Source of the DNA: Mytilus edulis
Taxonomy: Eukaryota
Length of the DNA: 64,000 bases
Assembly (NCBI RefSeq): GCF_963676685.1
Contig: NC_092350.1
Location: 82,522,001 to 82,586,000 of the forward strand
Direction of reading: 5' to 3'
Below the pieces are notes generated by a model, which worked only from the letters and a program-made list of their open reading frames with translations, was not told where the DNA came from and searched no databases. This document shows positions 6,756 to 33,154 of the stretch, in pieces (positions within the stretch are counted from its first letter, which is position 1; every line of letters starts with the position of its first letter). The translations under genes and the position numbers were made by a program.

Positions 6756-7059
6756 AAAGTAAAAACACAAAAATACTGAACTCCGATGAAAATTCAAAAA
6801 GGAAAATCAAAAATCAAAAGGCAAAATCAAAAGTCCAAACACATCAAACGAATGGATAACAACTGTCATATTCCTGACTTGGTACAGGCATTTTCTAATG
6901 TAGAAAATGGTTGATTGAACCTGGTTTTATAGCTAGCTAAACCTCTCACTTGTATGACAGTCGCATCAAATTCCATTACATTGTCAACGATGCATGAACA
7001 AAACAAACATACTCAAAGAGTAAAAATGTCAAAAATAGGGGTACAACAGTCAATATATA
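6756..7059 (-). mobile_element. Twister-bearing non-autonomous retroelement, family A, with a 6-bp TSD
   Basis: Flanked by TAACAA at 6750-6755 and 7060-7065. It is absent from the paralogous site (~61262-61275, CCATTTTAAAAAGAATG). Homologous copies lie at ~9880-10130(+), ~11325-11690(-), ~49660-49830(-), ~50010-50290(+) and ~56375-56643(+). Confidence 0.85.
6862..6961 (-). ncRNA. Candidate type-P5 twister ribozyme (intact)
   Basis: Minus strand: ACUGUCAUA-CAAG-UGA-GAGGU-UUAGCUAGCUAUAAAACCAGGUUC/AA-UCA-AC-CAUUUUCUA cau UAGAAAAUG-CCUG-UACCAAGU-CAGG-AA-UAUGACAGU. P5 is 9 bp, P2 is UCA/UGA, P3 is 9 bp and P4 is 4 bp. The pseudoknots are ACC/GGU and AC/GU. Predicted cleavage is between 6917 and 6916. 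Confidence 0.8.
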
Positions 7060-9127
7060 TAACAAGACTCTACACGAAATGAAAGGTTTTTAATGACATG
7101 TCGACGGCAGGTTAATATCAGATTTATCTAGATAAATATAGGTGGTGCGAACGCTGCACGATTATAATATAAAAAACTAAAAAAAAAAACGGTGAAAAAG
7201 TGACATAATAAAACAGATTTTGTTCTTCGTATATTCCTTAGTTAGTTCATCTCGTGTTAAATGCATTTCGTGAAGATCATTTTGACTGAATGATCGATCA
7301 TACAAATACGAAAAGCTTTGAAATAAAGTCACGTAAAAATTTAAAAGAACAGGTTTTTCAATAATATTATATTATTTGCAAGTAAAGTAGTCTATCTTGA
7401 TATTAGAAAAATGAATGCAAGTTTGGTTGGTAATGTTATGTAGGTTTTTTCCTAAAGAATGATTTCATGAATGAAAAGCATAGTTGTATAAGAACAGACA
7501 TTATTACTTTTTTTTAAAAACGTATTGTCTTGATATATATCGTTAGTATGGAAACATTATTTGTAAAACAGGGGCATTGCTGGTACGAAATATGAAATGG
7601 AAAACGCAATTCCAAACCATTGTTTCGATGGTAATTACATAATTGAATCATGTGTAAGAAATGGACACGGTAGAAAGAACACAAATGCCGCACACATTAA
7701 AGATGAATAATGCCCCAGTGTTATCTTAAAGACTGAAACTTTTTTATAGTTAAGCGTGTCGTACAACTTATCATAAATCATAATAACTAAATAATCTTCA
7801 ATATCAACTGACTCTTATATCATCATGTAACACTGCTTGTATCATAAAATTCATTTTCTAAAAATCCTCTTACGACAAAATCGTATTGCAAATTGCTTAT
7901 TCATGAGATGGTCTTATCAACTCATCGTTCATTCAAGGCTTCATTAAAGTACATTGTCATACAGGTATCCGTGATGCTCGAATCATAGAGTTCGACGGAC
8001 AAGATAGAGAAAACATTTAAGAGCATACATGATAAACAGCTAACATAGTCTATTCTTGGATAAAAACAGTTTTGGTATTCCGTAAAAGCCAATGTTATTG
8101 TAAATAATACAGTTATAAGCACAACCATTGCAATTAACTAGAAAAGACGACCACTCAATTTTAAACCATATATTATATGTAGTTTGCGTAACACTATATT
8201 TACTCTGAGCAAATGTTTCAAAAATGATCGCAATAATAATAAACAGCGGCGTGTCATAGTATTCCTTGCATGAATAAAATCACAATTAATTGATATTATA
8301 ATTGATTACTATTAAAACATGAAGTATCGACGAAAGAAAATAAAGCATCACTATACTTTCACAGAGAGGGAGCATGGTTTTTTTTTATCATTTTGATAAT
8401 AAATGTTTCAAAATGAAATACTCCTTCACCTTTCATATTCAAATAGTGATAAAAGATCGTTTCCGAACAAAATAAAAAAACAAAGAAAAAATGGAACTTC
8501 TCAAGGAACATTTTGTAAGCGTTAGGAAATTTGATTCAAGTCAAAAGATAAAACCTGCTGCATTGCTTCTTTTATAACTTACCTCTTTTAGTTCATCGAC
8601 TGATTTAATGTGATGATACAGGAATTACGTTTTTCCTTCAATGCATTGAATGTTATGAAAATAACCTGAATACATATGAATTTCAAAATAAAATTAGAAT
8701 ATTTGATATACATACTAACCATGCAACATTGCAGATATTTTTTAATCTTGTTTTCAGAAATATCCACTTAATGATTACATTATATTTTAGCCTTTGTGGC
8801 AGTAATCATAGTAATTACACATTTGCATGTATTATTTAGCAAGCAGAAGAAGCAACAACAACGTTTGAGATACATTTTTCATCAGGCGTTTTAATCACAC
8901 TCAAAACTGGCAAACAAGTACCATATAAGGCTCTTGAAAACAAAATGTAATAACATAGAATCATATTGAAAGAACAGTAAATTAATTTTCTAGATTTGAA
9001 CATATGGTCTTCAACAGTACACAAATGTAAATGCTCTTCAGAACTCGTTGTAAACCTATACATGTTTTGTTCTTCTAAAAGGTTGGAAAAGTGTTCAGTA
9101 TTACTTTTAACTAAATTTCTGTCTTAT

Positions 9128-11530: not shown

Positions 11531-12620
11531 TCTCATCAATATCCGTTGTATCTACATTGATGCGTTAACTAAACAGACACAACAAATAAAATAGTCAGAA
11601 TATGGGTACATCAGTCATTATCGTATAACAATTTTAAAAGGAACAATTTAATAGAACACAAAAACATCTATCTACAAACACATTCATTGAATCCCATTAT
11701 AAGAAAAAAAAATGAAATACCCAGGACATGTGTTGATGATTATAATTTTGTTTAATGCAATGAAGTGCAGGAAGAATCCCTACAAATACCAAGTTCAAAG
11801 TAATATTGTTTTACAAACATTTTTCGTATGCAACCGGACTTGACGTACTATGACTTGGTTGTATTACAACTATAGCAATATGCGCTTATCATATCTACCC
11901 ACATAGTATCTTTCTGTTGTGATCATCATACCTATTTAATTTGCATTGAAAAGTGTTTATGAAATTTGAAAATCAGTATGCAAGCGCTTCTATATGTGGT
12001 ACCATAATCGCTTTCTATTTGTAAATGTATGTATATCTTAGAGCGTTGGATGTGAATGTAATTTGTTTGTGTTTTCTCTTTAACTTGGATTTCATGAAAT
12101 AACTAGCAATAACAGAATATATAAATATCTACATTCTTATACAATTTAAAAGAAATCTGTTTCATAAATGAAAACAATGGTTCATCAACATGAATTTAAT
12201 CACGTTAATGATATCGGTTTAATACAGATATGTTTTTCAAAATAAAAAAGCCTATGCAAAAGGACTGAATCATATTACAATGTTCCTTAACATGAAGGTC
12301 ACCATAAAGATTTATCGATAAGCACAAAAGGACTTGCAGTGTTTTAGATGCTTTCGAACTAAGTTTGATTGCATATATTGTTGGCTTTATTAACCAATAT
12401 ATATTTCATTCACGTTCGAATAACAACATTACACATATAAAATTGTGTTTCCGTAACTGCCGAGTCAATATTGAATAACTAATAGAAAGAAAGCATGCAG
12501 TTGTGCAATTAATTAACAGTTGCTGTTTTCCTGGTGACGGACAAAAACACTATTTAAAGTACTAGGTTTCAGTACAAAACCATAGCTTCCCATGATTATC
12601 TTTCATTTTTAATGAGATTG

Positions 12621-12790
12621 CGATCAAAGTAGTTATAAAGGCAAACAAGTACAAAGTTGAAGAGCATAAGAGGATCCACAATTCCCAAAAGTTGTACCAA
12701 ATACGGCTACGGTAACCTGTTCCTGGGATAAGACTATCCTTAGTTTTCGAAAAATTCAAAGTGTTGTAACAGGAAATCTAAACAAAATGA
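12621..12790 (-). mobile_element. Retrozyme body fragment (no hammerhead retained)
   Basis: Aligns with 21598-21770 (CAAAGTTGAAGAGCAT..GGATCC..CCAAATACGGCTA). Confidence 0.7.
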
Positions 12791-13159
12791 AATCCTCAAA
12801 AATAAATAAAATAAATAGAAAACGTATGAACGACTGCTTTTAAATTAATCTAAATGAAAGAAGTGTATGATGGTATCCTTTTAGAACATCTGTTAAAACT
12901 TGAGCATCACAACAGGTGGTACTTGTGTAGTATGATCTGCGTACCCATACACACAACTTGTGAGTATTCCTGTATAGAATTATGTGGCTTAGTTTGTCTG
13001 TTCATTGTCTGTAGTTTTCTATTGATAGTGTTCTTATGTTATTTTCGTCTGATAAGTTTTGAATGTGACTTTTTCGGATGTGCTGCATTTCGTCGGGTTA
13101 TGTAGTGTATTTCGGTTGTTTCCTGTAAATAGTTAATATTTCAGTTTTATCATTTATCT

Positions 13160-13680
13160 TGTGTATAGTCATTTTATAAAATGTACTGTTTGCAAAAGTA
13201 TAAATTATTCTAAATAATAGGGATGTTCTTGTACCTAACAGAAAATCCTGGCCGTTTTTGGCACAACTTTTCAGAACGTTTGGTCCTCAATGTTGTTTAA
13301 CTTTGTACTTGTTTCGGCTTTCAAACGTTTGTATCTGGGCGTCACTAGTAAGTCTCGTGTGGGCAAAATGCACTTCTGGCGTATTAACATTTTAAACTTG
13401 CTGCCTTTTGTTAGCTATTATTCGTATGTTTCTTTGTCAATAATACTCTCCTATTTATTTATATTGTAGTCCTGTAGTGTTGTGTTGTCATTTTAATGTC
13501 ATATTTCACATGGCCATAAAAGAGGGAGGTTTGGCATGCCACAAAACCAGGTTCAACCCACCATTTTGCCTTTGAAAATGTCCTGTACCAAGTCAGGAAT
13601 TTGGTCATTGTTATATTATAGTTCGTTTCTGTGTGTGTTACATTTTAACGTTGGCTTTCCGTTGTGTCGTTTATTTTCTC
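13160..13680 (+). mobile_element. Composite element (family C): retrozyme-derived body, dead hammerhead and twister
   Basis: 13160-13382 aligns to the hammerhead retrozyme sense strand. The hammerhead remnant is at 13339-13382 and the twister at 13510-13608. The 3' part is homologous to 36120-36365(-) and 63810-64000(-). Confidence 0.75.
13510..13608 (+). ncRNA. Candidate type-P5 twister ribozyme (family C, near intact)
   Basis: AUGGCCAUA-AAA-GAGG-GAGGU-UUGGCAUGCCACAAAACCAGGUUC/AA-CCC-AC-CAUUUU..AAAAUG-U-CCUG-UACCAAGU-CAGG-AA-UUUGGUCAU. P5 differs in sequence from family A but still pairs. Predicted cleavage is between 13554 and 13555. Confidence 0.75.
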
Positions 13681-14229
13681 AACATGATTTGATTCAGCAG
13701 ATATCTGTTTGACATTTGATTGATATATATATATATATAAGCAAGCTGACTTTTTTTCCTTAACTCTTGTACTGTCCATAGATGATAAGAACAGTAAACA
13801 GACATATAAACAAAACTGTTTCATTAAGTTCTGTCATAATTTCTTCCTAGAACAAAAGTATTTATGACAAGCAGACGACCTTGATGGTTTATCACACTAT
13901 AGGTTATATGGTACATCACTGTCTTTGATAGCAGATGAAATTTCATTATTTACAACTCGCCTGATAAATCACTGCATAACAACTAGAAAACAATTTGAAT
14001 ATTTTACAATCGTTCCTATTAATTGCTTTTTGTCTTTAGTTTTTACGTGTTCATAATAAAAGAAATTAAAAAAAAAATGTCTGATATCTACAATTAGCGA
14101 CCAAATGACATCTACAATTATAAACCACCGTATGGCCTTCAACAATGAGCAAAGCCATTACCTCATAGTCAGCAATAAAAGGCCCAAAATGACATATGCA
14201 ACACAATTGAAACAAGAAAACTAATAGTC

Positions 14230-15499
14230 AAAAAGAGGGACGAAAGATACCAAAGGGACAATCAAACTCATAAATCTAAAACAAACTGACAACGCCATGG
14301 CTAAAAATGAAAAAGACAAACAGAAAAACAATAGCACACACGACACAACATAGAAAACTAAAGAATAAACAACACGAACCCCACCAAAACCTAGGGGTGA
14401 TCTCAGGTGCTCCGGAAGGGTAAGCAGATCCTGCTCCACATGTGGCACCCGTCGTGTTGATTATGTGATTACAAATCCGATAAAGAGTCTAATTCGGTAA
14501 GTCACATTCATGAAAGGGAAGGGGATTGTAGATACGACGTAAGGAACATATCCGATATCATTTGTGAAACGGTTATTTCATAACGGTCAACCAACTCGTG
14601 ATGGCGTCCGTAAAATTTACGAAAGGATGATTTCAACTTCACAATTTGGAACTCTTGGTTTAATAGCTTCCTTGTGAGCAGTAACCCTCTATCAAGAAAA
14701 TCATGATAGGAAATGCAAGCACGGGAATATCGTATCAATTGGGAGATATATACCCCGTATGCAGGTGCTGCTGGAATGTTGCTACTTAGAAATGGAAAGT
14801 TCACAATTGGAAAGCTGAAATCATCTCTTTTGTCGTAAAGTTTTGTTTTCAACCGACCCTCATTGTCAATTTCTAGATGTAATTCAAGATATGAAGCCGA
14901 CTTAACTGTATCTGTAGTATCCTTTATCTCCAATTCGATGGGATAGATGCGTTCCACATAGTCACCAAATTTTGAATTGTTTAGTGAAAGAACGTCATCT
15001 ATATAGCGAAAAGTAGAGTTAAAGGATATTGCTAACTTCTTATCTTTCTTCCTAAGAAGTTCCTGCATGAAGTCAGCCTCATAATAATAAAGAAACAAGT
15101 CGGCAAGTAGAGGGGCACATTTGTTCCCATTGGGGTGCCGACAGTCTGTTGAAAAACACGTCCTCCGAACGTTACAAATATGTTGTCAATCAAGAAATCA
15201 AGCATCTTGATAATATCGGTTTCAGAGAATTTTTTGTTTGAATGACAGTGATTCTTTATGATGTATCCCTCCCTAAGACAAGATACTTGTATCTACGTTG
15301 ACCATTCTTTTTTATGAAGCAAAGTAATACCAACTCTTTCAATTTGTCTTTTAGTTTGGAATGTGGAATACTTGTGTACAGAGAAGAAAAGTCAAATGTG
15401 TTAATACTGTTACAAGATGAAAGAGAGTTAGATTGTATGTACATGTATTCTAAAAGATCTTTGGAATTTTTAAGTATCCACATCTGATTCACGCCACCT
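14230..15499 (-). mobile_element. 5'-truncated Penelope-like retroelement, Naiad-type (RT at C-terminus, no downstream GIY-YIG)
   Basis: RT coding remnant at 15499-14508, followed by a ~280-nt 3' UTR whose fragments recur at ~10255, ~54190-54400, ~56337-56368, ~60963-61122 and ~62840-62935. Confidence 0.88.
14508..15499 (-). pseudogene. Reverse transcriptase pseudogene fragment (Penelope-like)
   Basis: Motif A TFDFSSLYTSIP, motif B' QQTVGTPMGTN/APLLADLFL, motif C FRYIDD and the PLE thumb region (LYDKRDDFSFPIVNFP...SQLIRYSRAC) are present. Frameshifts occur near 15258 and 15118. The ORF stops right after the thumb. Confidence 0.92.
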
Positions 15500-16613
15500 T
15501 AGTATAAGTTAATTTTAAGGAAAATCAACTTAGAAAATATACCAGGCTTATAAATGTGTACGCTAGACACGTGCTAGGTCAACATATGTTGTAGAGAGGT
15601 CCGCGTCAGTCATAGGGAAAGGACAAATACAAACAAACCATGAGGAACCAAATTCTATAAAATGATTTGTCAAGCTGTAAATATTAGAGTTGAAGTCAAT
15701 AAGATACTATGAATAAATGTAATCAACCAATTTGCTATTAGATGCATTCCAGACTGCAATAAATATTTTAACTTTAACGTGATTTGATAGGTCTGCACAT
15801 ACATAAAGCAGATTCCTCTCAAATTGTATTTATAGACATTGTTTTTGTTCTGTTCATTAGAGAAACGAACATGGCTGCCATATCTTATGAGAAAGTATGT
15901 TCAAGATTTGTCTTGTCTATGGTTGTATATGGTCAATTTGATGTGAAATAGCTATAGATATATAAATGCAAGTTGACTTGATATATTTGTATTTTTAATT
16001 TTGCTGCTGACAATTATTATAATGGATGCATTTGTCTTGTTTTAAGAGTTAGAAATAGAGGATTGAAAAAAAGACAACAGCAGAACGTTTCAGATATAAG
16101 GTATGTTAAAAAATGCTTTGCATCAATAATCAACATATGCTGGATTTTCAACATTTAGCAATCCTTCATCAAATGTAAAGAAGAAAAATGTTTTGCCTAT
16201 CTCATATGCTGCGCTTTTGACAACGTCAGTCATCTCAGTATCATATTGATGAACAAAGAGACAATTGTAATCATGCATTTGAAATTGGCATCACATGAGA
16301 AGCATTACTGTAATTGCGCACGCATATGTCGTAAACATTTATAATCTTATCCAAAAACAATTGATTGCAAATGCTAATATGACTGTTACATGTAACAACC
16401 TAATCGGTGTGATGGCCAAAAACATAATGAGACATGGTTTCGAGAAAGAATGGTTCGCCTTTTTTTTAACAATATCTATTAAAATATATGCAGTATCTAC
16501 TTCACAAAATATTCATGATGTAATATTCTATATACATTACTTGTTTCTCTTAACTTTTACCTTACTGTGCGTGTGTGTGTGCGTGTTCGGCGTATCACAT
16601 TATAAGCCTTTCA

Positions 16614-17303
16614 TAACTGTTTACACTACTTGGTCGATGCCACTACTGGTGGACGTTTTGTCTAAAAGGGTATCATCAGCCCAGTAGTCAGCACGTCGAT
16701 GTTGACATGAATATCAATGAATTGGTAATGTTCATAAAGTCGCTGTTTGCAAAGTATAATTGATTCTAAAAATTAAGGATTTTCTTATCGCAGGCATATA
16801 TTACCTTAGCCGTATTTGGCTACTTTGGAATTTAGGATGCTCAATGCTCGTTCCCTTTATACTTTGTCTTTTAACTATTTTGATCCGAGCGTTACTTAGG
16901 AGATAACTGTATTGTCTTTTAAGCTCTGACGGCATCAATTGGGGATTTGATAGTCGCAAACTAAGTTTACTGGCGACATGTTAGCGGAGAGAGTAAACGG
17001 GTATTTGCGACCATCAAATTCACAATTGATGCCGCCGGAGCTTATAATACAATATTGTTATCTCGATTATAATGAAACTGACAGAAAACAACGTTAAAAC
17101 ATGTGTTTAAAATCTGGCATATGCCGTCTGCGCTTGAGCGTACGTCCCATTGCATCAATTGTCAATTGATGCCATGTAAATAAGTGACGTTATCCAATCA
17201 AAATGAACGTTACAAATGTTGTTGCATTAGAATGATTGTTATAATTAAGACGGAACGCGCGTCTGGCGTTATCAAATCATAAGCCTGGTACCTTTGATAA
17301 CTA
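16614..17303 (+). mobile_element. Hammerhead retrozyme monomer interrupted within the ribozyme core
   Basis: Reverse complement of the 357-nt family. GAGCGTTACT (16887-16896) and AGACGGAACGCGCGTCTGGCGT (~17248-17269) are separated by a 337-bp insertion. Confidence 0.8.
16897..17233. mobile_element. Foldback insertion with two abutting inverted-repeat pairs
   Basis: Long arms at 16900-16960 and 17004-17064. A second pair is ATTATAATGAAAC (17066-17078) and GTTGCATTAGAAT (17221-17233). Boundaries are fixed by the host retrozyme, and there is no TSD longer than 1 bp. Confidence 0.8.
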
Positions 17304-17659
17304 CTAATACATTGAGTGTTTCTGATGTAAGGTGTTCAAGAGGTATGACCAAAGGCAAGTGCAGTTTTCATTGTGTTAACTCAGGTATGTATTTTTCATG
17401 CTATTTCTAATTTATTTGAAGAAAAGTGAATACGAATTTAAGTTTCTCTATACATTGGTAATCAATTACGCAGACATTATTGCTGGCAACAATCAGTTGT
17501 GTTTGCTTGTCCGTAATATATGTTTACACAGTTTCGCTGCTTGATATACATTCTTGTAATGTTTCAAATGCGCCTATTTTAGGTTAAACGTCCAATTGTA
17601 TATATATATAACGGATCCATAAACACCCTTATTTCGAGTGTGAGATTTAACGAACAAGT

Positions 17660-18116
17660 TAAAGTAGGTCCGAGACCACAATTATTTCCTAGTGCCTTTC
17701 TTTTAGAACATAAATGAAAATGAAAAAAATCCCACTTGCGTTTTCTCAATGAAATATTTACAGTGTGTTGTACTACTTTTGTGTCAAATATATCAAAACT
17801 ATAGAAAACTGTATCGGTTCTTACTTAAAATATGGACAATTGTATGCTTAGGACGTCTTGAAATCTTTTGACAGCTTCCGAAGTGCTAATGTTTAACCTT
17901 TTCAGCTGAACGAAATCACTACTTTCCTTTAAAATTCTGGACCCAAATTTTGTTAGTGTAATTTCACCCCCTTACCTGCAATTTGAGGCATCAAACATGG
18001 AGACATAAATTTGGAATTGTTATAAATTTAATTGGAAGTAACCAACTGTCAACACTAGGGACTATATGTGTGAACCAAGAAACTCATTTGACGACAATTC
18101 TGGTCACGGACCAGTA
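17660..18116. mobile_element. MITE-like non-autonomous DNA transposon
   Basis: TIR-like pair GGTCCGAGACCACAATT (17667-17683) and AATTCTGGTCACGGACC (18096-18112), 15/17 match. Confidence 0.65.
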
Positions 18117-21100
18117 GGTTTAATATCAATACACATGGCATGTTTTTTTAAAACAATTTTTAAAATATTAAGTTTGTTTCGGCATTAGTGTTGCCAATAA
18201 GAGTTTGCGTAACGTTTCACGTTTAAGTTTTATAAAGAGTGCTTGTTTTTGTATAAAGAATCCGTTTTGTATACTGATGGATTCCATTTAGATAATAAAG
18301 ATCTTTTGAAGCATATTAGTGTATTGTAAGCGTTTTCCATTGTCATACCATGTTGATCTGTCGCATAGGAATCCATTACATTGCAAAGATATTTGAACAA
18401 AGAAAATAAACATGAGGGTAAAAAATGTCAAAAACATGGGTAGATCAGTTAACATTGTTTTATCATCTGAATCAATATGAAATGAAGCAAATATGTCAAC
18501 AAAGATAAACACACTGCACATATAAAAAGCACATTAGCAATAACGAATGACAATACTATCAAAATTAACAATAGCAGAATAATACAATGACGGGATTTAT
18601 AAGTATCGAGCCACGTCAAATAGAAATTGCGAAATATTGACCAAACCGTAAACAGTTAAATGTACAAAGACACACAAAAGGAATAGCATTACACATTAAA
18701 TCTATTCTTTAAGACCATAGTATATCATCAGTAAGGTTCACCAATCTTACAACTCATTAAGTTTGTTCTATTACCGGAATAATTCAACTAGATTCAGTGC
18801 AAAACAGAATCTAAAAGAACTTTTTCATAATTGGACTTTTTACCTTTTGATTTGAGCGTCACTTGTAGACGAAACATTCGTATATATTCCAAGTATTTAT
18901 GACGCGTATATTATATAAACAAGTTGTATATACATATCCAATTGATATCGATTATAAAGTCGAAAGTCAGCCCCGATATTGCATTATTGTTCTTGAAACC
19001 TTTTTGTTATTATAAATAAACTCACTTTTGCATAAGGAGTTCAACTTTGTTGGTAAAAAATTTAAAACCATAATGAATTACATTTTACATTTATTGTTTT
19101 ATGAAATAAATTCAAGCGTAATTGGTAATACCTCCTGTTCATGTTTAAAGTGTGTATACTTTAGAATTTCGGCTTTATTTCTGATCGGTCCAATATCAAT
19201 CATGTAACCAATAGGTTGCAATGTCAATTAATTAGCTTTATCCATTGATTACATTGGACTTACTACTTTCTCAAAGGAGGCTTAAATACAACATTAATTC
19301 AGACAATTGTATGATAAAGAATTTTGTTTTAATTTTGAAAACTCAATGGAAATCAATTTAACATAATTAATTGACGTTTTATTTAGTTATCGTAATTTTA
19401 TTATTTAATTTGGCAGACCTGATGATAAGATTAATACTATTGGATATACTGTATATAGAAACCAGTATCGATACCATGCTTAACCGTGTGTTTCCATTTG
19501 TCTGTTGATTTTTAAAAGAAATGAAATATATATAGTTACAATTGTCTCCAGGTCTATAAAACACAAACAAACTGAAATAAACATTTTAATATCAACTTAC
19601 GGCACAAAGATACTTTAATAGCGCAATCTTCGTGCAAGTTGCTTATTTTTATAAAATAGCCATAATCAAGCATGTCCGTGCATGGCTATTCAAAGTTTAG
19701 AATGTGTTTCTTTTTTATTAGATCGTCAATGAAGAGGTCGGATTTGTATCTTTGATGATTTCTTACAAAAGATTTTTTTACAAAACTTTTGAGAGACATT
19801 TCTAAAGGTAACTGTATGTCCATGCTAACAAACAATTTAAAGTAGCAAAATAGCAACTGGGACATAAAAACACAAGAATCATCAATTTTCAATTAAAATG
19901 TTGACCTTTGATCTTAAAATCTAAGTTAAACTATCTGATATTTTGTGTTGTTTCACATCAAGAATAAATACTAAAGATGTAAGAAACATATATTTATTAG
20001 TATAAAGGTGTTAGAAACTAAAAAAAAAGACCAACGTTACTACTTTACAATTTTACTTTAGGTTGATTTGACAATAATATTTTTCGATCATATTCTGCTT
20101 AAAATTTTTCTATACTATACTATCATGGAGCAAATAAAAAATAGAAAATCGCAATTTTTATGAAACTTTACATTAAAATAATGACTAATGTCGAAGACTT
20201 TGTCTAAAAAGTACTAGTTTTCAGGAACAGTTCCTAGTAAATCCCAAGTGCACTGTTGGTCCACATCATATTACAATCTAGTTAGCTCTTTCTTCTCCTG
20301 TTGTATTGCATCTTGAAATACCATGATTTATACACAGTAATTACTTCAAAAATGAATGTCTATTATAGCAATCTCATAAAATTTGGGTTGATAAAAAGTT
20401 CTATAACAACAAAGGTTTCAGCACATATTTAATTATATATCGATAGAACAGGATTATGTCGCAATGAAATTACTAGAATGGAATAAAGGTGTTGTAACGT
20501 TGCGTCTATGAAATGTGCCTCTTGATAATAAGATTAACAATGTCGCATAATAGCTGCTAATATACCGCTAGAACATTTGAAGCTTCATTAATTCCAAAAG
20601 GTCCTTTCATTAATAGTTTACTTATTATGATACTTTAACAATGTTTACCGCTTCCGCAAATCCAAAAAGGTAAACATAGTGGAAACAAATATAAAACGAA
20701 ACATAGTTCATAGTTATTACTATTAAAAAACTAACTTATATTTTCTGCATGATCTGTGTTGACATGCACCTCGCCATTCATTGTCTTTTTGATTGTGCTT
20801 GCATTTGTTTTATTTCAGTTTTTATTTTTGTATATTCTGCCACATTGGTGAATGTAACAGTAGACTTGTAAATATTTCCAAGTTAATCTAATAAGAGAAA
20901 AATATAAAACAACTCTTTCAAAAAAATGTCAACTTATTTAGAAAAAAAAACAGTGTCTGTTGCTTTCCTTCGTGTTATAAAGTTATTCTAAACAAAAGCC
21001 CTTTAACTGTACAGGCTTAGAACAGCACCAACGACAATTACTTCCAAGCATTACAATGTCAGCGTTTTCAATTTGAGTCTCTCTATTTGGTATTCTGTTC

Positions 21101-21550
21101 CACCCATATTTGTACATAAAAAAATAATACATGCTATAAGCATGCAGGTTTACAAAAATGAATTAACGCTAGAAATTACAAACTAACACAATACATTTGA
21201 AAACCTAACTATTTAAGTCCGTCATTTTAGTATTACCCTTATCAACAATTGAAGGACTGGAAAGCAATAATCAATCTATTGGTTACTAATTGTAAGCATG
21301 AATTCATGTGCAGAAACAAACTCACTTATTGTTTATTTTAATTTCCAGAATATTTCTACAGAGGATTTTACTGATTTAATATTATGGTTTGAACAAGAAC
21401 AGTAGAAATAAATCAATGTGTCTTTGGCTTTAATATATCTTATTGGTCCGAACATTGTTTTATTTTCAAATTATCTGTTCATTTAAATTGCACATTAGCA
21501 AAAATGTGCATAAATAATAGTTATCAAAAGTACCAGGATTATAATTGTAT

Positions 21551-21594
21551 ACGCCAGACGCACGTTTCGTCTACATAAAACTCATCAGTGACGT
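21551..21594 (-). ncRNA. Type I minimal hammerhead ribozyme
   Basis: Minus strand: ACGUCA-CUGAUGA-GUUU UAUGU AGAC-GAAA-CGUGCG-UC/UGGCGU. Cleavage after GUC, between 21557 and 21556. Confidence 0.88.
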
Positions 21595-21907
21595 TCAGAT
21601 CAAAATAGTTAAAAAGCCAAATCAATACAAAGTTGAAGAGCATTGAGGATCCAAAATTCCAAAAAGTTGTGCCAAATACGGCTAAGGTAATCTACTCCTG
21701 GGGTAAGAAAATCCTTAGTTTTTCGAAAAATTCAAGGTTTTGTAAACAGAAAATTTATATAAAAATGACCATATAATTGATATTCATGTCAACACCGAAG
21801 TGCTGACTACTGGGCTGGTGATACCCTCGGGGAAGAAACGTCCACCAGCAGTGGCATCGACCCAGTGGTGTAAATAGTTATTAAAAGTACCAGGATTATA
21901 ATTTTAT

Positions 21908-21951
21908 ACGCCAGACGCGCGTTTCGTCTACATAAGACTCATCAGTGACGC
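21908..21951 (-). ncRNA. Type I minimal hammerhead ribozyme
   Basis: Minus strand: GCGUCA-CUGAUGA-GUCU UAUGU AGAC-GAAA-CGCGCG-UC/UGGCGU. Helix III is the palindrome ACGCGCGU. Cleavage between 21914 and 21913. Confidence 0.92.
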
Positions 21952-24064
21952 TCAGATCAAACTAGTTAAAAAGCCAAATCAATACAAAGTTGAAAGTTGT
22001 ATTTTTTTTAATAGAAAAACATTTATTACGCTTCAAGATGTAACGAATTATGAACACTTTGCATCAAACAGATACAATTGAAACAATTTTAATTCGGAAC
22101 GATTCACATCAACTTTAATTACAAAACTACTCTTAATGTTTCTGTTACTAGTGTTAAACGTAAATGAGGCAAATGGTTTATTATAATCTGTCAATAACGC
22201 ACGGTATGCATAACATTAAGACAAATTTATAACACACCCACTACATGTAAAAGCAAAATAAAAATGTTTGATTCATTTAAGATAATAAGATGATATTATG
22301 TATGCTGTATTGTCCTCCAATTAAATAGTCGATGGAAAACATTGTCATTTTTGTTGCTCTCTATGAAAACTACAAAATTAGAGTTGATTGTCAAAAAATC
22401 CTTTAACATGTTTTATTCATGTAAAGTATTTAAAGTTCATACTCTATTTTCAACATCATTAACAAATAGTAGATGCTCTGCAAAATTGCAGTAGAATAAG
22501 ACAAGTGTTTGTATATATAAAAAAGGTGGAGAGGGGTCTTGGCGTTGGGTATCTCTATCTATATTTATACGTAAAAAAGGAGGGGATCACTTCGGCACGT
22601 TCCTTTCTTCTTACTTTCACTTGGATGGTGTTAACAGTATGTCGACTGAGCAAGCACGACAGCTTGTAACACATGGATCTATAACGGTCTCCAAATTTTG
22701 GCATTTCTGCGGGAGGAAAACCCGTTTGCTTCAAAGACAAAACTCTACATTCTACATCATATGACAACTATCTCCGACTTTATATTGTTTCAATGGAGTT
22801 GCAACTCAATGCATTCAATTTCTCTCTTAAGCAGTATAGATTCAACTGACTTGTATACAAGCTTAAGCATTACATATTCCATTAATTAGGTATATGGCGC
22901 CATATATCTTAAACATACAGTTGATATGTACGACTAACAAAGTTATCTCAAGGGAACAAAGTTAATTACAGAAGTGAGCTTCTCCTGAAAAAAGGGTTTA
23001 TTCTTTAAATTGTAAGCTATTAGATCCAAGTGCCGATAAATACCAGCAAGTCAATTGAACAATCAATCGGTCAATATGTTGATCGGTGTAGTAGAGTGTT
23101 TGCATTGTGGATGAATAAGGCCTTCTTTTTGAAAGCAGAATACTTATGTTTTTTATTCTAATGGATAAGCGAACGTTTAATATAAATTACAGTGAAACAG
23201 TAAACAACAGCATTGTCATGGTATATAAATGTGTCAACAGGGAGTAATCCCACCGTCCCGATTCATCCACCTGTAAAGTAAAGACTTAAGTAGTAAGTTT
23301 CGTTAATAAGGGTAAGCTTGAGTGTAAGATCAGACCAAACACATAGAAAAAATGTAATTAACAGGAGAAACCAATATCTTTCTTAACGTAATCTAGACAT
23401 GTTCGATCTTTTTGTTTGCATATTTGTTCCGTAACGGGAGCTTACAGTGAAGATTTACACTTTACCCAACACGGAGCTAATTAAACATCCTTATTAATAA
23501 TGCTTAGGAAATCGTCAAATATTAAAGTTGTGCCTTGCAAATCGCACAATGTGGTCTAATTAGATGATTTATGTCAATAGAAGAATTATATCAGGTTTTG
23601 AATATGAAAAAAAAAATCTTTCAGTGTATTTAGAATGTGATCGTTTTCGTTTTCACAATTTAGGATGTCATCAGAGTAAATATGCTAAATCCATTAGAAA
23701 AGAGATGAATACTTTAACAACAAAATGCCAACATAACAAAGTGTCTGAACCCCGAAACACGTAAAGAAAATGCACCAGGGACAGATAGTTATGGTCCAAT
23801 GTTTTATTTCATTACCACGCAATTCATTTTCATAAAAGATTTGTAAATATGAATAACTTACAAACATAATTGTTAAATCTCAACAATGGCGAACCATTTA
23901 CAAAAAGCCTTATAGTTCACCAGGGAATGTTCAGAAAAATATTGGCACAATTTCAGTAAAGTATTTAATCATCTTCCAGATAATTATTCGTATAATTTCT
24001 CCAGAGTGTTGTCTCAGATACTTAAGCTAACTATTGGACTGCTTGTAGCAGGACATTCCAATAT

Positions 24065-24164: not shown

Positions 24165-25148
24165 TTTTCCTGGTGACGGACAAAAACACTATTTAAAGTA
24201 CTAGGTTTCAGTACAAAACCATAGCTTCCCATGATTATCTTTCATTTTTAATGAGATTGCGATCAAAGTAGTTATAAAGGCAAACAAGTACAAAGTTGAA
24301 GAGCATAAGAGGATCCACAATTCCCAAAAGTTGTACCAAATACGGCTACGGTAACCTGTTCCTGGGATAAGACTATCCTTAGTTTTCGAAAAATTCAAAG
24401 TGTTGTAACAGGAAATCTAAACAAAATGAAATCCTCAAAAATAAATAAAATAAATAGAAAACGTATGAACGACTGCTTTTAAATTAATCTAAATGAAAGA
24501 AGTGTATGATGGTATCCTTTTAGAACATCTGTTAAAACTTGAGCATCACAACAGGTGGTACTTGTGTAGTATGATCTGCGTACCCATACACACAACTTGT
24601 GAGTATTCCTGTATAGAATTATGTGGCTTAGTTTGTCTGTTCATTGTCTGTAGTTTTCTATTGATAGTGTTCTTATGTTATTTTCGTCTGATAAGTTTTG
24701 AATGTGACTTTTTCGGATGTGCTGCATTTCGTCGGGTTATGTAGTGTATTTCGGTTGTTTCCTGTAAATAGTTAATATTTCAGTTTTATCATTTATCTTG
24801 TGTATAGTCATTTTATAAAATGTACTGTTTGCAAAAGTATAAATTATTCTAAATAATAGGGATGTTCTTGTACCTAACAGAAAATCCTGGCCGTTTTTGG
24901 CACAACTTTTCAGAACGTTTGGTCCTCAATGTTGTTTAACTTTGTACTTGTTTCGGCTTTCAAACGTTTGTATCTGGGCGTCACTAGTAAGTCTCGTGTG
25001 GGCAAAATGCACTTCTGGCGTATTAACATTTTAAACTTGCTGCCTTTTGTTAGCTATTATTCGTATGTTTCTTTGTCAATAATACTCTCCTATTTATTTA
25101 TATTGTAGTCCTGTAGTGTTGTGTTGTCATTTTAATGTCATATTTCAC

Positions 25149-25247
25149 ATGGCCATAAAAGAGGGAGGTTTGGCATGCCACAAAACCAGGTTCAACCCAC
25201 CATTTTGCCTTTGAAAATGTCCTGTACCAAGTCAGGAATTTGGTCAT
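25149..25247 (+). ncRNA. Candidate type-P5 twister ribozyme (duplicate of 13510-13608)
   Basis: Identical sequence in the duplicated segment. Confidence 0.75.
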
Positions 25248-25868
25248 TGTTATATTATAGTTCGTTTCTGTGTGTGTTACATTTTAACGTTGGCTTTCCG
25301 TTGTGTCGTTTATTTTCTCAACATGATTTGATTCAGCAGATATCTGTTTGACATTTGATTGATATATATATATATATAAGCAAGCTGACTTTTTTTCCTT
25401 AACTCTTGTACTGTCCATAGATGATAAGAACAGTAAACAGACATATAAACAAAACTGTTTCATTAAGTTCTGTCATAATTTCTTCCTAGAACAAAAGTAT
25501 TTATGACAAGCAGACGACCTTGATGGTTTATCACACTATAGGTTATATGGTACATCACTGTCTTTGATAGCAGATGAAATTTCATTATTTACAACTCGCC
25601 TGATAAATCACTGCATAACAACTAGAAAACAATTTGAATATTTTACAATCGTTCCTATTAATTGCTTTTTGTCTTTAGTTTTTACGTGTTCATAATAAAA
25701 GAAATTAAAAAAAAAATGTCTGATATCTACAATTAGCGACCAAATGACATCTACAATTATAAACCACCGTATGGCCTTCAACAATGAGCAAAGCCATTAC
25801 CTCATAGTCAGCAATAAAAGGCCCAAAATGACATATGCAACACAATTGAAACAAGAAAACTAATAGTC

Positions 25869-27138
25869 AAAAAGAGGGACGAAAGATACCAAAGGGACAA
25901 TCAAACTCATAAATCTAAAACAAACTGACAACGCCATGGCTAAAAATGAAAAAGACAAACAGAAAAACAATAGCACACACGACACAACATAGAAAACTAA
26001 AGAATAAACAACACGAACCCCACCAAAACCTAGGGGTGATCTCAGGTGCTCCGGAAGGGTAAGCAGATCCTGCTCCACATGTGGCACCCGTCGTGTTGAT
26101 TATGTGATTACAAATCCGATAAAGAGTCTAATTCGGTAAGTCACATTCATGAAAGGGAAGGGGATTGTAGATACGACGTAAGGAACATATCCGATATCAT
26201 TTGTGAAACGGTTATTTCATAACGGTCAACCAACTCGTGATGGCGTCCGTAAAATTTACGAAAGGATGATTTCAACTTCACAATTTGGAACTCTTGGTTT
26301 AATAGCTTCCTTGTGAGCAGTAACCCTCTATCAAGAAAATCATGATAGGAAATGCAAGCACGGGAATATCGTATCAATTGGGAGATATATACCCCGTATG
26401 CAGGTGCTGCTGGAATGTTGCTACTTAGAAATGGAAAGTTCACAATTGGAAAGCTGAAATCATCTCTTTTGTCGTAAAGTTTTGTTTTCAACCGACCCTC
26501 ATTGTCAATTTCTAGATGTAATTCAAGATATGAAGCCGACTTAACTGTATCTGTAGTATCCTTTATCTCCAATTCGATGGGATAGATGCGTTCCACATAG
26601 TCACCAAATTTTGAATTGTTTAGTGAAAGAACGTCATCTATATAGCGAAAAGTAGAGTTAAAGGATATTGCTAACTTCTTATCTTTCTTCCTAAGAAGTT
26701 CCTGCATGAAGTCAGCCTCATAATAATAAAGAAACAAGTCGGCAAGTAGAGGGGCACATTTGTTCCCATTGGGGTGCCGACAGTCTGTTGAAAAACACGT
26801 CCTCCGAACGTTACAAATATGTTGTCAATCAAGAAATCAAGCATCTTGATAATATCGGTTTCAGAGAATTTTTTGTTTGAATGACAGTGATTCTTTATGA
26901 TGTATCCCTCCCTAAGACAAGATACTTGTATCTACGTTGACCATTCTTTTTTATGAAGCAAAGTAATACCAACTCTTTCAATTTGTCTTTTAGTTTGGAA
27001 TGTGGAATACTTGTGTACAGAGAAGAAAAGTCAAATGTGTTAATACTGTTACAAGATGAAAGAGAGTTAGATTGTATGTACATGTATTCTAAAAGATCTT
27101 TGGAATTTTTAAGTATCCACATCTGATTCACGCCACCT
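25869..27138 (-). mobile_element. Naiad-type Penelope-like element with RT pseudogene (duplicate of 14230-15499)
   Basis: Identical ORF fragments at 26147-26737 and 26895-27131. Confidence 0.88.
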
Positions 27139-28252
27139 TAGTATAAGTTAATTTTAAGGAAAATCAACTTAGAAAATATACCAGGCTTATAAATGTGTAC
27201 GCTAGACACGTGCTAGGTCAACATATGTTGTAGAGAGGTCCGCGTCAGTCATAGGGAAAGGACAAATACAAACAAACCATGAGGAACCAAATTCTATAAA
27301 ATGATTTGTCAAGCTGTAAATATTAGAGTTGAAGTCAATAAGATACTATGAATAAATGTAATCAACCAATTTGCTATTAGATGCATTCCAGACTGCAATA
27401 AATATTTTAACTTTAACGTGATTTGATAGGTCTGCACATACATAAAGCAGATTCCTCTCAAATTGTATTTATAGACATTGTTTTTGTTCTGTTCATTAGA
27501 GAAACGAACATGGCTGCCATATCTTATGAGAAAGTATGTTCAAGATTTGTCTTGTCTATGGTTGTATATGGTCAATTTGATGTGAAATAGCTATAGATAT
27601 ATAAATGCAAGTTGACTTGATATATTTGTATTTTTAATTTTGCTGCTGACAATTATTATAATGGATGCATTTGTCTTGTTTTAAGAGTTAGAAATAGAGG
27701 ATTGAAAAAAAGACAACAGCAGAACGTTTCAGATATAAGGTATGTTAAAAAATGCTTTGCATCAATAATCAACATATGCTGGATTTTCAACATTTAGCAA
27801 TCCTTCATCAAATGTAAAGAAGAAAAATGTTTTGCCTATCTCATATGCTGCGCTTTTGACAACGTCAGTCATCTCAGTATCATATTGATGAACAAAGAGA
27901 CAATTGTAATCATGCATTTGAAATTGGCATCACATGAGAAGCATTACTGTAATTGCGCACGCATATGTCGTAAACATTTATAATCTTATCCAAAAACAAT
28001 TGATTGCAAATGCTAATATGACTGTTACATGTAACAACCTAATCGGTGTGATGGCCAAAAACATAATGAGACATGGTTTCGAGAAAGAATGGTTCGCCTT
28101 TTTTTTAACAATATCTATTAAAATATATGCAGTATCTACTTCACAAAATATTCATGATGTAATATTCTATATACATTACTTGTTTCTCTTAACTTTTACC
28201 TTACTGTGCGTGTGTGTGTGCGTGTTCGGCGTATCACATTATAAGCCTTTCA

Positions 28253-28942
28253 TAACTGTTTACACTACTTGGTCGATGCCACTACTGGTGGACGTTTTGT
28301 CTAAAAGGGTATCATCAGCCCAGTAGTCAGCACGTCGATGTTGACATGAATATCAATGAATTGGTAATGTTCATAAAGTCGCTGTTTGCAAAGTATAATT
28401 GATTCTAAAAATTAAGGATTTTCTTATCGCAGGCATATATTACCTTAGCCGTATTTGGCTACTTTGGAATTTAGGATGCTCAATGCTCGTTCCCTTTATA
28501 CTTTGTCTTTTAACTATTTTGATCCGAGCGTTACTTAGGAGATAACTGTATTGTCTTTTAAGCTCTGACGGCATCAATTGGGGATTTGATAGTCGCAAAC
28601 TAAGTTTACTGGCGACATGTTAGCGGAGAGAGTAAACGGGTATTTGCGACCATCAAATTCACAATTGATGCCGCCGGAGCTTATAATACAATATTGTTAT
28701 CTCGATTATAATGAAACTGACAGAAAACAACGTTAAAACATGTGTTTAAAATCTGGCATATGCCGTCTGCGCTTGAGCGTACGTCCCATTGCATCAATTG
28801 TCAATTGATGCCATGTAAATAAGTGACGTTATCCAATCAAAATGAACGTTACAAATGTTGTTGCATTAGAATGATTGTTATAATTAAGACGGAACGCGCG
28901 TCTGGCGTTATCAAATCATAAGCCTGGTACCTTTGATAACTA
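28253..28942 (+). mobile_element. Interrupted retrozyme with foldback insertion at 28536-28872 (duplicate)
   Basis: Identical to 16614-17303. Confidence 0.8.
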
Positions 28943-29298
28943 CTAATACATTGAGTGTTTCTGATGTAAGGTGTTCAAGAGGTATGACCAAAGGCAAGTG
29001 CAGTTTTCATTGTGTTAACTCAGGTATGTATTTTTCATGCTATTTCTAATTTATTTGAAGAAAAGTGAATACGAATTTAAGTTTCTCTATACATTGGTAA
29101 TCAATTACGCAGACATTATTGCTGGCAACAATCAGTTGTGTTTGCTTGTCCGTAATATATGTTTACACAGTTTCGCTGCTTGATATACATTCTTGTAATG
29201 TTTCAAATGCGCCTATTTTAGGTTAAACGTCCAATTGTATATATATATAACGGATCCATAAACACCCTTATTTCGAGTGTGAGATTTAACGAACAAGT

Positions 29299-29755
29299 TA
29301 AAGTAGGTCCGAGACCACAATTATTTCCTAGTGCCTTTCTTTTAGAACATAAATGAAAATGAAAAAAATCCCACTTGCGTTTTCTCAATGAAATATTTAC
29401 AGTGTGTTGTACTACTTTTGTGTCAAATATATCAAAACTATAGAAAACTGTATCGGTTCTTACTTAAAATATGGACAATTGTATGCTTAGGACGTCTTGA
29501 AATCTTTTGACAGCTTCCGAAGTGCTAATGTTTAACCTTTTCAGCTGAACGAAATCACTACTTTCCTTTAAAATTCTGGACCCAAATTTTGTTAGTGTAA
29601 TTTCACCCCCTTACCTGCAATTTGAGGCATCAAACATGGAGACATAAATTTGGAATTGTTATAAATTTAATTGGAAGTAACCAACTGTCAACACTAGGGA
29701 CTATATGTGTGAACCAAGAAACTCATTTGACGACAATTCTGGTCACGGACCAGTA
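29299..29755. mobile_element. MITE-like element (duplicate of 17660-18116)
   Basis: Identical sequence in the duplicated segment. Confidence 0.65.
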
Positions 29756-32700
29756 GGTTTAATATCAATACACATGGCATGTTTTTTTAAAACAATTTTT
29801 AAAATATTAAGTTTGTTTCGGCATTAGTGTTGCCAATAAGAGTTTGCGTAACGTTTCACGTTTAAGTTTTATAAAGAGTGCTTGTTTTTGTATAAAGAAT
29901 CCGTTTTGTATACTGATGGATTCCATTTAGATAATAAAGATCTTTTGAAGCATATTAGTGTATTGTAAGCGTTTTCCATTGTCATACCATGTTGATCTGT
30001 CGCATAGGAATCCATTACATTGCAAAGATATTTGAACAAAGAAAATAAACATGAGGGTAAAAAATGTCAAAAACATGGGTAGATCAGTTAACATTGTTTT
30101 ATCATCTGAATCAATATGAAATGAAGCAAATATGTCAACAAAGATAAACACACTGCACATATAAAAAGCACATTAGCAATAACGAATGACAATACTATCA
30201 AAATTAACAATAGCAGAATAATACAATGACGGGATTTATAAGTATCGAGCCACGTCAAATAGAAATTGCGAAATATTGACCAAACCGTAAACAGTTAAAT
30301 GTACAAAGACACACAAAAGGAATAGCATTACACATTAAATCTATTCTTTAAGACCATAGTATATCATCAGTAAGGTTCACCAATCTTACAACTCATTAAG
30401 TTTGTTCTATTACCGGAATAATTCAACTAGATTCAGTGCAAAACAGAATCTAAAAGAACTTTTTCATAATTGGACTTTTTACCTTTTGATTTGAGCGTCA
30501 CTTGTAGACGAAACATTCGTATATATTCCAAGTATTTATGACGCGTATATTATATAAACAAGTTGTATATACATATCCAATTGATATCGATTATAAAGTC
30601 GAAAGTCAGCCCCGATATTGCATTATTGTTCTTGAAACCTTTTTGTTATTATAAATAAACTCACTTTTGCATAAGGAGTTCAACTTTGTTGGTAAAAAAT
30701 TTAAAACCATAATGAATTACATTTTACATTTATTGTTTTATGAAATAAATTCAAGCGTAATTGGTAATACCTCCTGTTCATGTTTAAAGTGTGTATACTT
30801 TAGAATTTCGGCTTTATTTCTGATCGGTCCAATATCAATCATGTAACCAATAGGTTGCAATGTCAATTAATTAGCTTTATCCATTGATTACATTGGACTT
30901 ACTACTTTCTCAAAGGAGGCTTAAATACAACATTAATTCAGACAATTGTATGATAAAGAATTTTGTTTTAATTTTGAAAACTCAATGGAAATCAATTTAA
31001 CATAATTAATTGACGTTTTATTTAGTTATCGTAATTTTATTATTTAATTTGGCAGACCTGATGATAAGATTAATACTATTGGATATACTGTATATAGAAA
31101 CCAGTATCGATACCATGCTTAACCGTGTGTTTCCATTTGTCTGTTGATTTTTAAAAGAAATGAAATATATATAGTTACAATTGTCTCCAGGTCTATAAAA
31201 CACAAACAAACTGAAATAAACATTTTAATATCAACTTACGGCACAAAGATACTTTAATAGCGCAATCTTCGTGCAAGTTGCTTATTTTTATAAAATAGCC
31301 ATAATCAAGCATGTCCGTGCATGGCTATTCAAAGTTTAGAATGTGTTTCTTTTTTATTAGATCGTCAATGAAGAGGTCGGATTTGTATCTTTGATGATTT
31401 CTTACAAAAGATTTTTTTACAAAACTTTTGAGAGACATTTCTAAAGGTAACTGTATGTCCATGCTAACAAACAATTTAAAGTAGCAAAATAGCAACTGGG
31501 ACATAAAAACACAAGAATCATCAATTTTCAATTAAAATGTTGACCTTTGATCTTAAAATCTAAGTTAAACTATCTGATATTTTGTGTTGTTTCACATCAA
31601 GAATAAATACTAAAGATGTAAGAAACATATATTTATTAGTATAAAGGTGTTAGAAACTAAAAAAAAAGACCAACGTTACTACTTTACAATTTTACTTTAG
31701 GTTGATTTGACAATAATATTTTTCGATCATATTCTGCTTAAAATTTTTCTATACTATACTATCATGGAGCAAATAAAAAATAGAAAATCGCAATTTTTAT
31801 GAAACTTTACATTAAAATAATGACTAATGTCGAAGACTTTGTCTAAAAAGTACTAGTTTTCAGGAACAGTTCCTAGTAAATCCCAAGTGCACTGTTGGTC
31901 CACATCATATTACAATCTAGTTAGCTCTTTCTTCTCCTGTTGTATTGCATCTTGAAATACCATGATTTATACACAGTAATTACTTCAAAAATGAATGTCT
32001 ATTATAGCAATCTCATAAAATTTGGGTTGATAAAAAGTTCTATAACAACAAAGGTTTCAGCACATATTTAATTATATATCGATAGAACAGGATTATGTCG
32101 CAATGAAATTACTAGAATGGAATAAAGGTGTTGTAACGTTGCGTCTATGAAATGTGCCTCTTGATAATAAGATTAACAATGTCGCATAATAGCTGCTAAT
32201 ATACCGCTAGAACATTTGAAGCTTCATTAATTCCAAAAGGTCCTTTCATTAATAGTTTACTTATTATGATACTTTAACAATGTTTACCGCTTCCGCAAAT
32301 CCAAAAAGGTAAACATAGTGGAAACAAATATAAAACGAAACATAGTTCATAGTTATTACTATTAAAAAACTAACTTATATTTTCTGCATGATCTGTGTTG
32401 ACATGCACCTCGCCATTCATTGTCTTTTTGATTGTGCTTGCATTTGTTTTATTTCAGTTTTTATTTTTGTATATTCTGCCACATTGGTGAATGTAACAGT
32501 AGACTTGTAAATATTTCCAAGTTAATCTAATAAGAGAAAAATATAAAACAACTCTTTCAAAAAAATGTCAACTTATTTAGAAAAAAAAACAGTGTCTGTT
32601 GCTTTCCTTCGTGTTATAAAGTTATTCTAAACAAAAGCCCTTTAACTGTACAGGCTTAGAACAGCACCAACGACAATTACTTCCAAGCATTACAATGTCA

Positions 32701-33154
32701 GCGTTTTCAATTTGAGTCTCTCTATTTGGTATTCTGTTCCACCCATATTTGTACATAAAAAAATAATACATGCTATAAGCATGCAGGTTTACAAAAATGA
32801 ATTAACGCTAGAAATTACAAACTAACACAATACATTTGAAAACCTAACTATTTAAGTCCGTCATTTTAGTATTACCCTTATCAACAATTGAAGGACTGGA
32901 AAGCAATAATCAATCTATTGGTTACTAATTGTAAGCATGAATTCATGTGCAGAAACAAACTCACTTATTGTTTATTTTAATTTCCAGAATATTTCTACAG
33001 AGGATTTTACTGATTTAATATTATGGTTTGAACAAGAACAGTAGAAATAAATCAATGTGTCTTTGGCTTTAATATATCTTATTGGTCCGAACATTGTTTT
33101 ATTTTCAAATTATCTGTTCATTTAAATTGCACATTAGCAAAAATGTGCATAAAT

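Follow-up and report, generated by a model that had tools for sequence, protein, structure and literature searches.

The window, as we call the whole stretch of 64,000 nucleotides of Mytilus edulis DNA that was analysed, carries a defunct internal piece of the 3' UTR from a Naiad-type Penelope-like element (PLE), here called family C (Table 1). The fragment at 13068-13680 is truncated at both ends, there is no open reading frame at the locus, and the final ~275 nt of the element are missing. It lies in a direct duplication of about 11.5-11.6 kb (12526-24064 versus 24165-35705, 99.98% identity) that flanks a 100-N gap. This duplication is probably an assembly artefact, and the paired features of the window are therefore to be counted once. 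The free retrozyme that serves as our comparator is likewise duplicated, at 33154-33633, and has a further copy at 50898-51268. Free retrozyme fragments also occur near the family C locus, at 12622-12790 (-), 16581-16902 (+) and 17248-17306 (+). Elsewhere in the window a long near-perfect inverted repeat at 59605-59761, with weak Rfam matches to plant miRNAs that are far under the gathering scores, is probably a small inverted-repeat transposon.

Table 1. Positions in the window of the features discussed in the text.
Feature	Positions	Strand	Remark
Internal fragment of Naiad family C 3' UTR/pseudo-LTR	13068-13680	+	Extent from comparison with 28 dispersed copies
Retrozyme-derived segment, unit positions 63-357	13130-13420	+	From alignment to free retrozymes
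Dead type I hammerhead	13339-13382	+	Pairing kept in helices I and II; mutations in both core boxes and in the palindrome of helix III
P5-permuted twister-like motif	13510-13608	+	Arranged as in PMC8501958, Table 1
Palindrome 1, in place of P1	13532-13541	+	Pairing predicted with its counterpart in another copy
Palindrome 2	13545-13553	+	Directly before the predicted cleavage site
Identical second copy of the family C fragment	24707-25319	+	Inside the 11.6-kb duplication around the 100-N gap
Further family C copy	35832-36363	-	Truncated at the 5' end shortly past the retrozyme segment; decayed twister
Free hammerhead retrozyme, comparator	21515-21994	-	1.3 units, intact cores
Homologous twister-like motif, Naiad family D	6859-6961	-	Family D UTR without the retrozyme segment

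The upstream part of the fragment is derived from a hammerhead retrozyme. The preliminary description of this DNA had placed the retrozyme homology at 13160-13382. The homology is real (72% identity, E-value 4e-28, between 13164-13422 and the 357-nt repeat at 21773-21513), but it is wider than that, and the multiple alignment extends it to 13130-13420, or ~290 nt, beginning with a decayed second leader hairpin and finishing at the fixed insertion end of the retrozyme. A hammerhead with paired helices and lost cores had also been described here, and this is what the sequence contains. Helix I is formed by GCGUCA (13339-13344) and UGGCGU (13377-13382) and helix II by GUCU (13352-13355) and GGGC (13361-13364), while the two core boxes read CUAGUAA (13345-13351) and AAAA (13365-13368) where the free repeats have CUGAUGA and GAAA, and the palindrome of helix III is broken. 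By standard hammerhead numbering, the core changes affect G5, A6, G8 and G12. The core of a type I hammerhead (CUGANGA with GAAA) is thus missing from the window copy and from its subfamily. The free 357-nt repeat scores 30.5-33 bits with the Rfam model Hammerhead_1, below the gathering score of 34, and elsewhere in the genome it forms tandem arrays of short non-coding units with an intact hammerhead. Family C has a single partial unit inside the UTR of a coding element and so does not qualify as a retrozyme, which consists of short tandem units with an intact hammerhead.

The same lesions are shared by dispersed copies. In 28 dispersed family C copies the first box is CTAGTAA in 23 and CTGATGA in none, and the twister core is retained in 21 of the 28. 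A pattern admitting both intact and dead boxes matched 143 places, with no intact box among the first 100 listed, although older subfamilies would be invisible to this pattern because it demanded the flanks of the window's own subfamily.

The twister-like motif starts 128 nt downstream of the hammerhead remnant. Twister ribozymes, including type P5 (RF02684), were reportedly introduced by Roth et al. in 2014. The preliminary description had put a near-intact twister about 130 nt downstream in the same orientation; its position and strand hold and comparison supports it, but Rfam misses the motif, P1 is absent and P2 is weak. P5 pairs 13510-13516 with 13602-13608, P3 pairs 13562-13567 with 13575-13580 and P4 pairs 13582-13585 with 13594-13597, and both P4 and P5 form. 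P2 joins 13557-13559 to 13522, 13524 and 13525 with A13523 bulged, and is followed through by the conserved G13526-A13527 and the pseudoknots T1 (13528-13530/13587-13589) and T2 (13560-13561/13592-13593). The cut is predicted to fall between C13554 and A13555. Compared with Table 1 of PMC8501958, the twister nucleotides of L1 (N^AA, GA) and of L4 are present. All five Naiad families that carry the motif retain the conserved G-A, the AA where the cut is predicted, the U and AA of L4 and both pseudoknots, and none has a P1 stem. The three pairs and bulge of P2 in the window copy compare with a perfect 4-pair P2 in families E, F and H. A C.C mismatch at the first P2 pair occurs in 49 of the first 100 listed of 3,094 family C matches (hand count) and is also found in the youngest intact family C subfamily (locus L168, 4790-4860).

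Support for the motif is comparative, since Rfam misses it and its folding energy is unremarkable. Rfam scans of the window, the locus and 19 copies recognised no twister, and genome searches with RF03154 and RF02684 came back empty. The z-score of the folding energy is +0.87 for the window motif, -1.8 for family F and -2.6 for family D. A descriptor built on the conserved bases alone matched 9 places in a search space made up of the window and 600 kb of random genome; 8 of these were the motif and 1 was an AT-rich chance match. Reversed and complemented control sequences had 0 matches. With a looser descriptor there were 28 matches in 1 Mb, 11 of them AT-rich chance matches, and the reversed control had 3.

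Family C itself is an autonomous Naiad-type Penelope-like retroelement, with the retrozyme segment and the twister-like motif in its 3' UTR/pseudo-LTR. The 5' half of its twister has 3,094 exact matches, which gives at least 3,094 copies of the family. These copies are variably truncated at the 5' end and share a fixed 3' end ~275 nt beyond 13680, and in long copies an RT reading frame lies upstream of the UTR. In a young subfamily the element forms tandem units of 4,555 bp, 99.97% identical, with an ORF of 1007 aa. The ORF at locus L168 has a GIY-YIG domain at 138-226, N-terminal to the RT (Pfam, E-value 1.4e-4, 22.5 bits with a cut-off of 22.6), and RVT_1 at 711-856 (Pfam, E-value 0.013). 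The CxC motif and DKA in place of DKG are found in families C, D and G. Family C also shows the partial tandems forming pseudo-LTRs and the 5' truncation by which Naiads are recognised, and the upstream repeat contains the twister-like motif in 4/4 tandem insertions inspected. Two copies deserve a mention of their own. Locus L098 has an RT 99% identical to that of the young subfamily and a divergent UTR with a deletion running through the twister, a combination that suggests recombination between subfamilies. At locus L031 the UTR holds a 115-nt direct repeat (7289-7403 and 8414-8521, 84%), one copy following the stop codon and the other following the twister.

The joint presence of a retrozyme-like part and a twister in many insertions, which had been proposed as a check, is borne out. 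All 40 scored candidates (of 5,299) match 13100-13680 at 91-100% and have the junction between dead hammerhead and twister-like motif, with 2 of the 40 being the window's own duplicated copies across the assembly gap and hence not independent. The chance adjacency of two insertions can be rejected on these counts.

Related twister-like motifs occur in Naiad families D, E, F and H. Exact matches to the motif number 4,766 for F, 1,979 for E and 1,641 for H. A Naiad-type RT lies upstream of the motif in the longer copies, at 3/20 loci of D, 5/15 of F, 2/25 of E and 2/25 of H, where the counts for E and H exclude L176 (its RT groups with G) and L221 (the match is in the middle of the ORF). Family D also has an ORF of 1056 aa. 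The UTRs of C and D can be aligned solely across the ~100-nt motif. Retrozyme homology is absent from the UTRs of D, E, F and H, and the segment is confined to lineage C among the six families compared. Looking at the extant UTRs of C, D, E, F, G and H, none has a canonical hammerhead, and the consensus of a fossil subfamily, which we call C0, does have one. With the twister-like motif in four Naiad families that have no retrozyme sequence, the motif is likely older than the hammerhead segment. The motif types, C and D on one side and E, F and H on the other, follow the same split as the RT tree, which is unrooted.

The structure can be compared across 9 representatives. T1, T2 and P4 are paired in 100% of them. 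T1 exists in three sequence types with 2/3 of its pairs changed on both sides, and double changes are seen in 11/19 pairs overall, a count equalled in 0/500 shuffles. This last figure should not be read as a probability, because the 9 sequences are hand-picked relatives on which the structure itself was worked out. In T2 the variation is confined to one side, and P4 and one T2 pair are invariant and hence show no covariation. Three rows of lineage C fail P3 in the pair count merely through an offset of one column.

Family G groups with C and D in the unrooted RT tree and is without the twister, yet it is young and abundant, which indicates that the motif is not required by all Naiads. The region 14293-15498 (-) and locus L035 are family G fragments with a 300-nt 3' UTR lacking a twister. 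This UTR has a conserved stem-rich motif, consisting of a 10-nt palindrome and a hairpin, with 17 distinct matches in 1 Mb and no match in Rfam. It is a candidate for a different ribozyme, and if it is one, the true exchange of modules among these Naiads would have taken place in G.

Every twister-bearing family has a palindrome without a loop and a second self-complementary stretch where P1 would be. The palindrome centre is AU in C and UA in C0, and it varies by lineage but stays self-complementary; in family H it is AU in 62, UA in 31, GC in 1 and broken in 6 of the first 100 listed of 1,641 matches (hand count). These centres count in favor of a dimer, because a hairpin loop would not constrain the bases in this way. 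Forming a homodimer is computed to gain 10-17 kcal/mol over two separate monomers. The replacement of P1 by two palindromes suggests that cleavage of the Naiad twister-like motif may depend on dimers, a gating that we infer from the sequence and the computed pairing. Twisters lacking P1 are described as cleaving inefficiently in PMC8501958, and PMC4209133 describes palindromic helices working in dimers in PLE hammerheads. RNA reads from one raw run, of which ~6% was read, come from both strands and show no pile-up of ends at the predicted cut; assembled RNA contigs are of a kind that cannot show cleavage ends.

Where the retrozyme segment came from can be judged from its two ends. Free retrozyme arrays finish at unit 354-357 in 24/38 unselected arrays (18/26 by a looser cut), and the retrozyme homology in C ends at the same unit point, in the middle of the UTR and ~550 nt before the Naiad's own end. 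At the other end, the first 62 nt of the retrozyme resemble the leader of family C with compensatory changes, and the first 89 nt (21871-21783, -) match the leader of family G (L307-L309) through the start codon. The leader match scores are 92 for G, 50 for C and 44 for D, with the G match spanning 87 nt and including a second small hairpin. This points to family G as the source and likely helper of the retrozyme. The segment in C includes the leader-derived unit 63-89, which is missing from C's own leader, and so the segment most likely came from a retrozyme. As it runs from a G-type leader to the fixed end of the retrozyme, it is likely a captured insertion. A signal of target-site duplication around the segment was not convincing (p 0.002 in 1/8 variants, p 0.02-0.15 in the others) and we have not used it, because it is T-rich, weak in 7/8 variants and absent at free insertions. 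One exact empty-site pattern for an insertion-free sister of C gave 0 matches, and truncation at unit position 63 is not frequent in free retrozymes. A third non-coding tandem family with 707-bp spacing and no ORF (L240 7990 and 8697; L158 4094) has both retrozyme leader hairpins, with compensatory changes. The L158-type leader was considered as a Naiad start and ruled out, as it has no ORF and belongs to this other tandem family.

The probable order of events can be read from subfamily C0. A search for an intact core together with a C-type loop found 11 places, 10 of them free retrozymes and one a C-like copy, and C0 consists of the relatives ~80% identical to that single intact copy. Its consensus has CUGAUGA, GAAA, the second leader hairpin and the twister core. 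Both hammerhead boxes are kept in 10/30 copies, a count in which 23 of the 30 were parsed, the query is included and some copies are neighbours on one contig. An RT lies upstream in 5/30. C0 is identical to the free retrozyme at 254/285 positions against 211/285 for the window copy. In an unrooted tree it lies between the free retrozymes and the dead clade, and C0 and C together form one side of a branch with support 100/98. The younger subfamilies broke the hammerhead core in different ways, either by an 8-nt deletion or by different substitutions. In another sample the hammerhead core was absent from 40/40 C-type segments compared with 19/75 other segments. Across five C variants the match to the window is 121/125 (97%) for the twister core, whose positions were chosen from cross-family conservation, 145/202 (72%) for the hammerhead and 78-80% for the adjoining UTR. 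With C0 intact and the younger subfamilies dead, these data point to a likely capture, a stage with two ribozymes and then the loss of the hammerhead. The C0 series and these conservation figures support the earlier idea that an originally intact hammerhead was lost in this lineage and the twister core retained. A canonical hammerhead core in the family consensus, which had been named as counter-evidence, is absent from the extant C subfamilies sampled and present in the fossil C0.

We consider it probable that the twister was ancestral, that a retrozyme was captured with its core intact, that the element passed through a two-ribozyme stage and that the hammerhead then decayed while the twister core was kept. 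In mechanistic terms, a Naiad RT would have reverse-transcribed a retrozyme RNA, starting at the fixed end, into the UTR of C's ancestor, and would have stopped at the base of the leader hairpin. The second ribozyme may then have been redundant and so have drifted. Where insertions lie in tandem, the upstream and the downstream pseudo-LTR each have a twister, and the two could pair through their palindromes and cut at C^A. Such cleavage would release a circularly permuted RNA of unit length as the template for the RT, as has been proposed for hammerheads in other PLEs, and lone copies within host transcripts would be cut poorly.

The modular replacement of one ribozyme by another, as first suggested, does not fit this history, since the twister was probably present first and nothing was replaced. 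A true swap would need a different beginning, in which a hammerhead-bearing Naiad C ancestor, ending at what is the fixed end of the retrozyme, spawned the retrozyme through an internal deletion and then received, from a D-like Naiad, a tail with a twister, and its hammerhead became inactive. Several observations agree with it. The retrozyme has a leader hairpin of Naiad type that is homologous to C's too, the base of that hairpin is precisely where the segment starts, C0 and C stand apart from both free retrozyme families in the unrooted tree, and a preprint derives Xenopus retrozymes from PLE pseudo-LTRs (bioRxiv 10.64898/2026.07.22.740005). However, the retrozyme leader is nearer to that of G than to that of C, and C's own leader lacks unit 63-89. 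Moreover, in a sample enriched for C queries, 55/58 copies spanning the upstream junction continue into the twister tail. Of the remaining three, two are truncated and one breaks off close to where the segment ends. The swap also requires that the twister was lost and then regained. Because both trees are unrooted we still grant this whole chain of events some probability, and rate it as quite unlikely. The original form of the proposal, in which family C descends from a non-autonomous retrozyme to which a twister module was added, would also account for the shared junction and the shared core lesions. It falls short where C runs upstream into an intact Naiad ORF and downstream to the Naiad 3' end, and the loci examined hold no 357-nt-type tandem in which the hammerhead remnant is joined to the twister. 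With family C being an autonomous Naiad's 3' UTR and four other families having the twister without the retrozyme, we regard this origin as very improbable and the earlier claim as not supported.

A different kind of doubt concerns function. The capture history could be true with the fold of lineage C being non-catalytic, serving instead as an element for RNA dimerisation or protein binding, or with the palindromes acting as DNA. The lack of P1, the weak P2 with its C.C mismatch in roughly half of the listed C copies, the failure of Rfam to match the motif and the absence of a pile-up of RNA read ends would all suit such a role. On the other side, five families keep the G-A, the AA, both pseudoknots and the U and AA of L4, and E, F and H have a perfect 4-pair P2 like that of the Schistosoma mansoni twisters in PMC8501958. 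On balance we think a non-catalytic fold unlikely. The full statement, that Naiads process their RNA with a new dimer-only variant of the twister and that one lineage captured an active hammerhead retrozyme, spread with both ribozymes and lost the hammerhead, is a tentative one that we would put slightly short of an even chance.

If many Naiads, the most prolific PLE clade in bivalves, use a twister that standard models miss, this may be a testable answer to their want of the hammerhead found in other PLEs. A natural twister gated by dimers would, if true, be a new ribozyme variant, and the gating would explain how thousands of genomic copies persist without cutting host RNAs. The series from C0 to C indicates a flow of sequence from a retrozyme to an autonomous element, the reverse of what is usually assumed, and this matters for the reading of homology between retrozymes and PLEs. 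If the history is right, it is a full fossil record of the gain, redundancy and loss of a ribozyme, with the retrozyme as a parasite built on the leader of another Naiad. What the locus adds is the retrozyme capture, the fossil two-ribozyme stage and the G-type origin of the retrozyme leader. In a full-text literature search, with subscription journals and some supplements outside its reach, no paper joined 'Naiad' and 'twister', and 'retrozyme' with 'Naiad' returned only two papers, both cited here. Among titles and abstracts there was none on twisters in PLEs or on natural dimeric twisters.

It is useful to set these elements beside the systems already described. Naiads are diagnosed by an N-terminal GIY-YIG, CxC and DKA (Craig et al. 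2021, PMC8557442), and are reported there without a canonical hammerhead, with Mytilus Naiads listed in File S1; the supplement has no occurrence of 'twister' and no HHR comment on its two Mytilus rows. The elements here share with them the N-terminal GIY-YIG, the C-terminal RT, CxC, DKA, a Zn-finger-like motif, 5' truncation and pseudo-LTR tandems, and differ in that five families have a twister-like motif and one fossil subfamily has a canonical hammerhead. Comparison with the S. mansoni twisters and the T-variants of the Perere-3 LINE (PMC8501958) shows the same order of L1 (NAA / GA plus T1), P2, T2, P3, P4 and L4, as well as an A-rich L2 strand, an association with retrotransposons and a tolerated weakness of P1. 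Unlike these, the Naiad motif has two palindromes instead of P1 and a T2 of AC or GC with GU, P2 is bulged with 3 pairs in C and D, and the motif lies in a PLE 3' UTR and is missed by Rfam, where the S. mansoni twisters lie at the 5' end of a LINE.

The free repeat resembles, by description, the Mytilus non-LTR retrozymes of Cervera and de la Pena 2020 (PMC7229834), with tandem units of ~355 nt, a type I hammerhead and two sequence families. PLEs were proposed there as helpers of these retrozymes. In contrast to that account, the truncated unit here is a fixed passenger in the UTR of an autonomous element, and the leader of the retrozyme can be matched to one particular Naiad family, G. The minimal hammerheads that act as dimers in PLE pseudo-LTRs (PMC4209133, Cervera and de la Pena 2014) are similar in having a ribozyme in the pseudo-LTR, a short palindromic helix and a proposed dimer that releases RNA of unit length, but the Naiad motif belongs to another ribozyme class and has two palindromes rather than one. 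Finally, the Xenopus preprint (bioRxiv 10.64898/2026.07.22.740005), which in its available part samples no mollusc, infers a flow from PLE to retrozyme. It agrees with our case in the sequence common to retrozymes and PLE ends, and differs from it in that the UTR homology here is best read as running from retrozyme to PLE, a flow that could mimic the signal on which that preprint relies.
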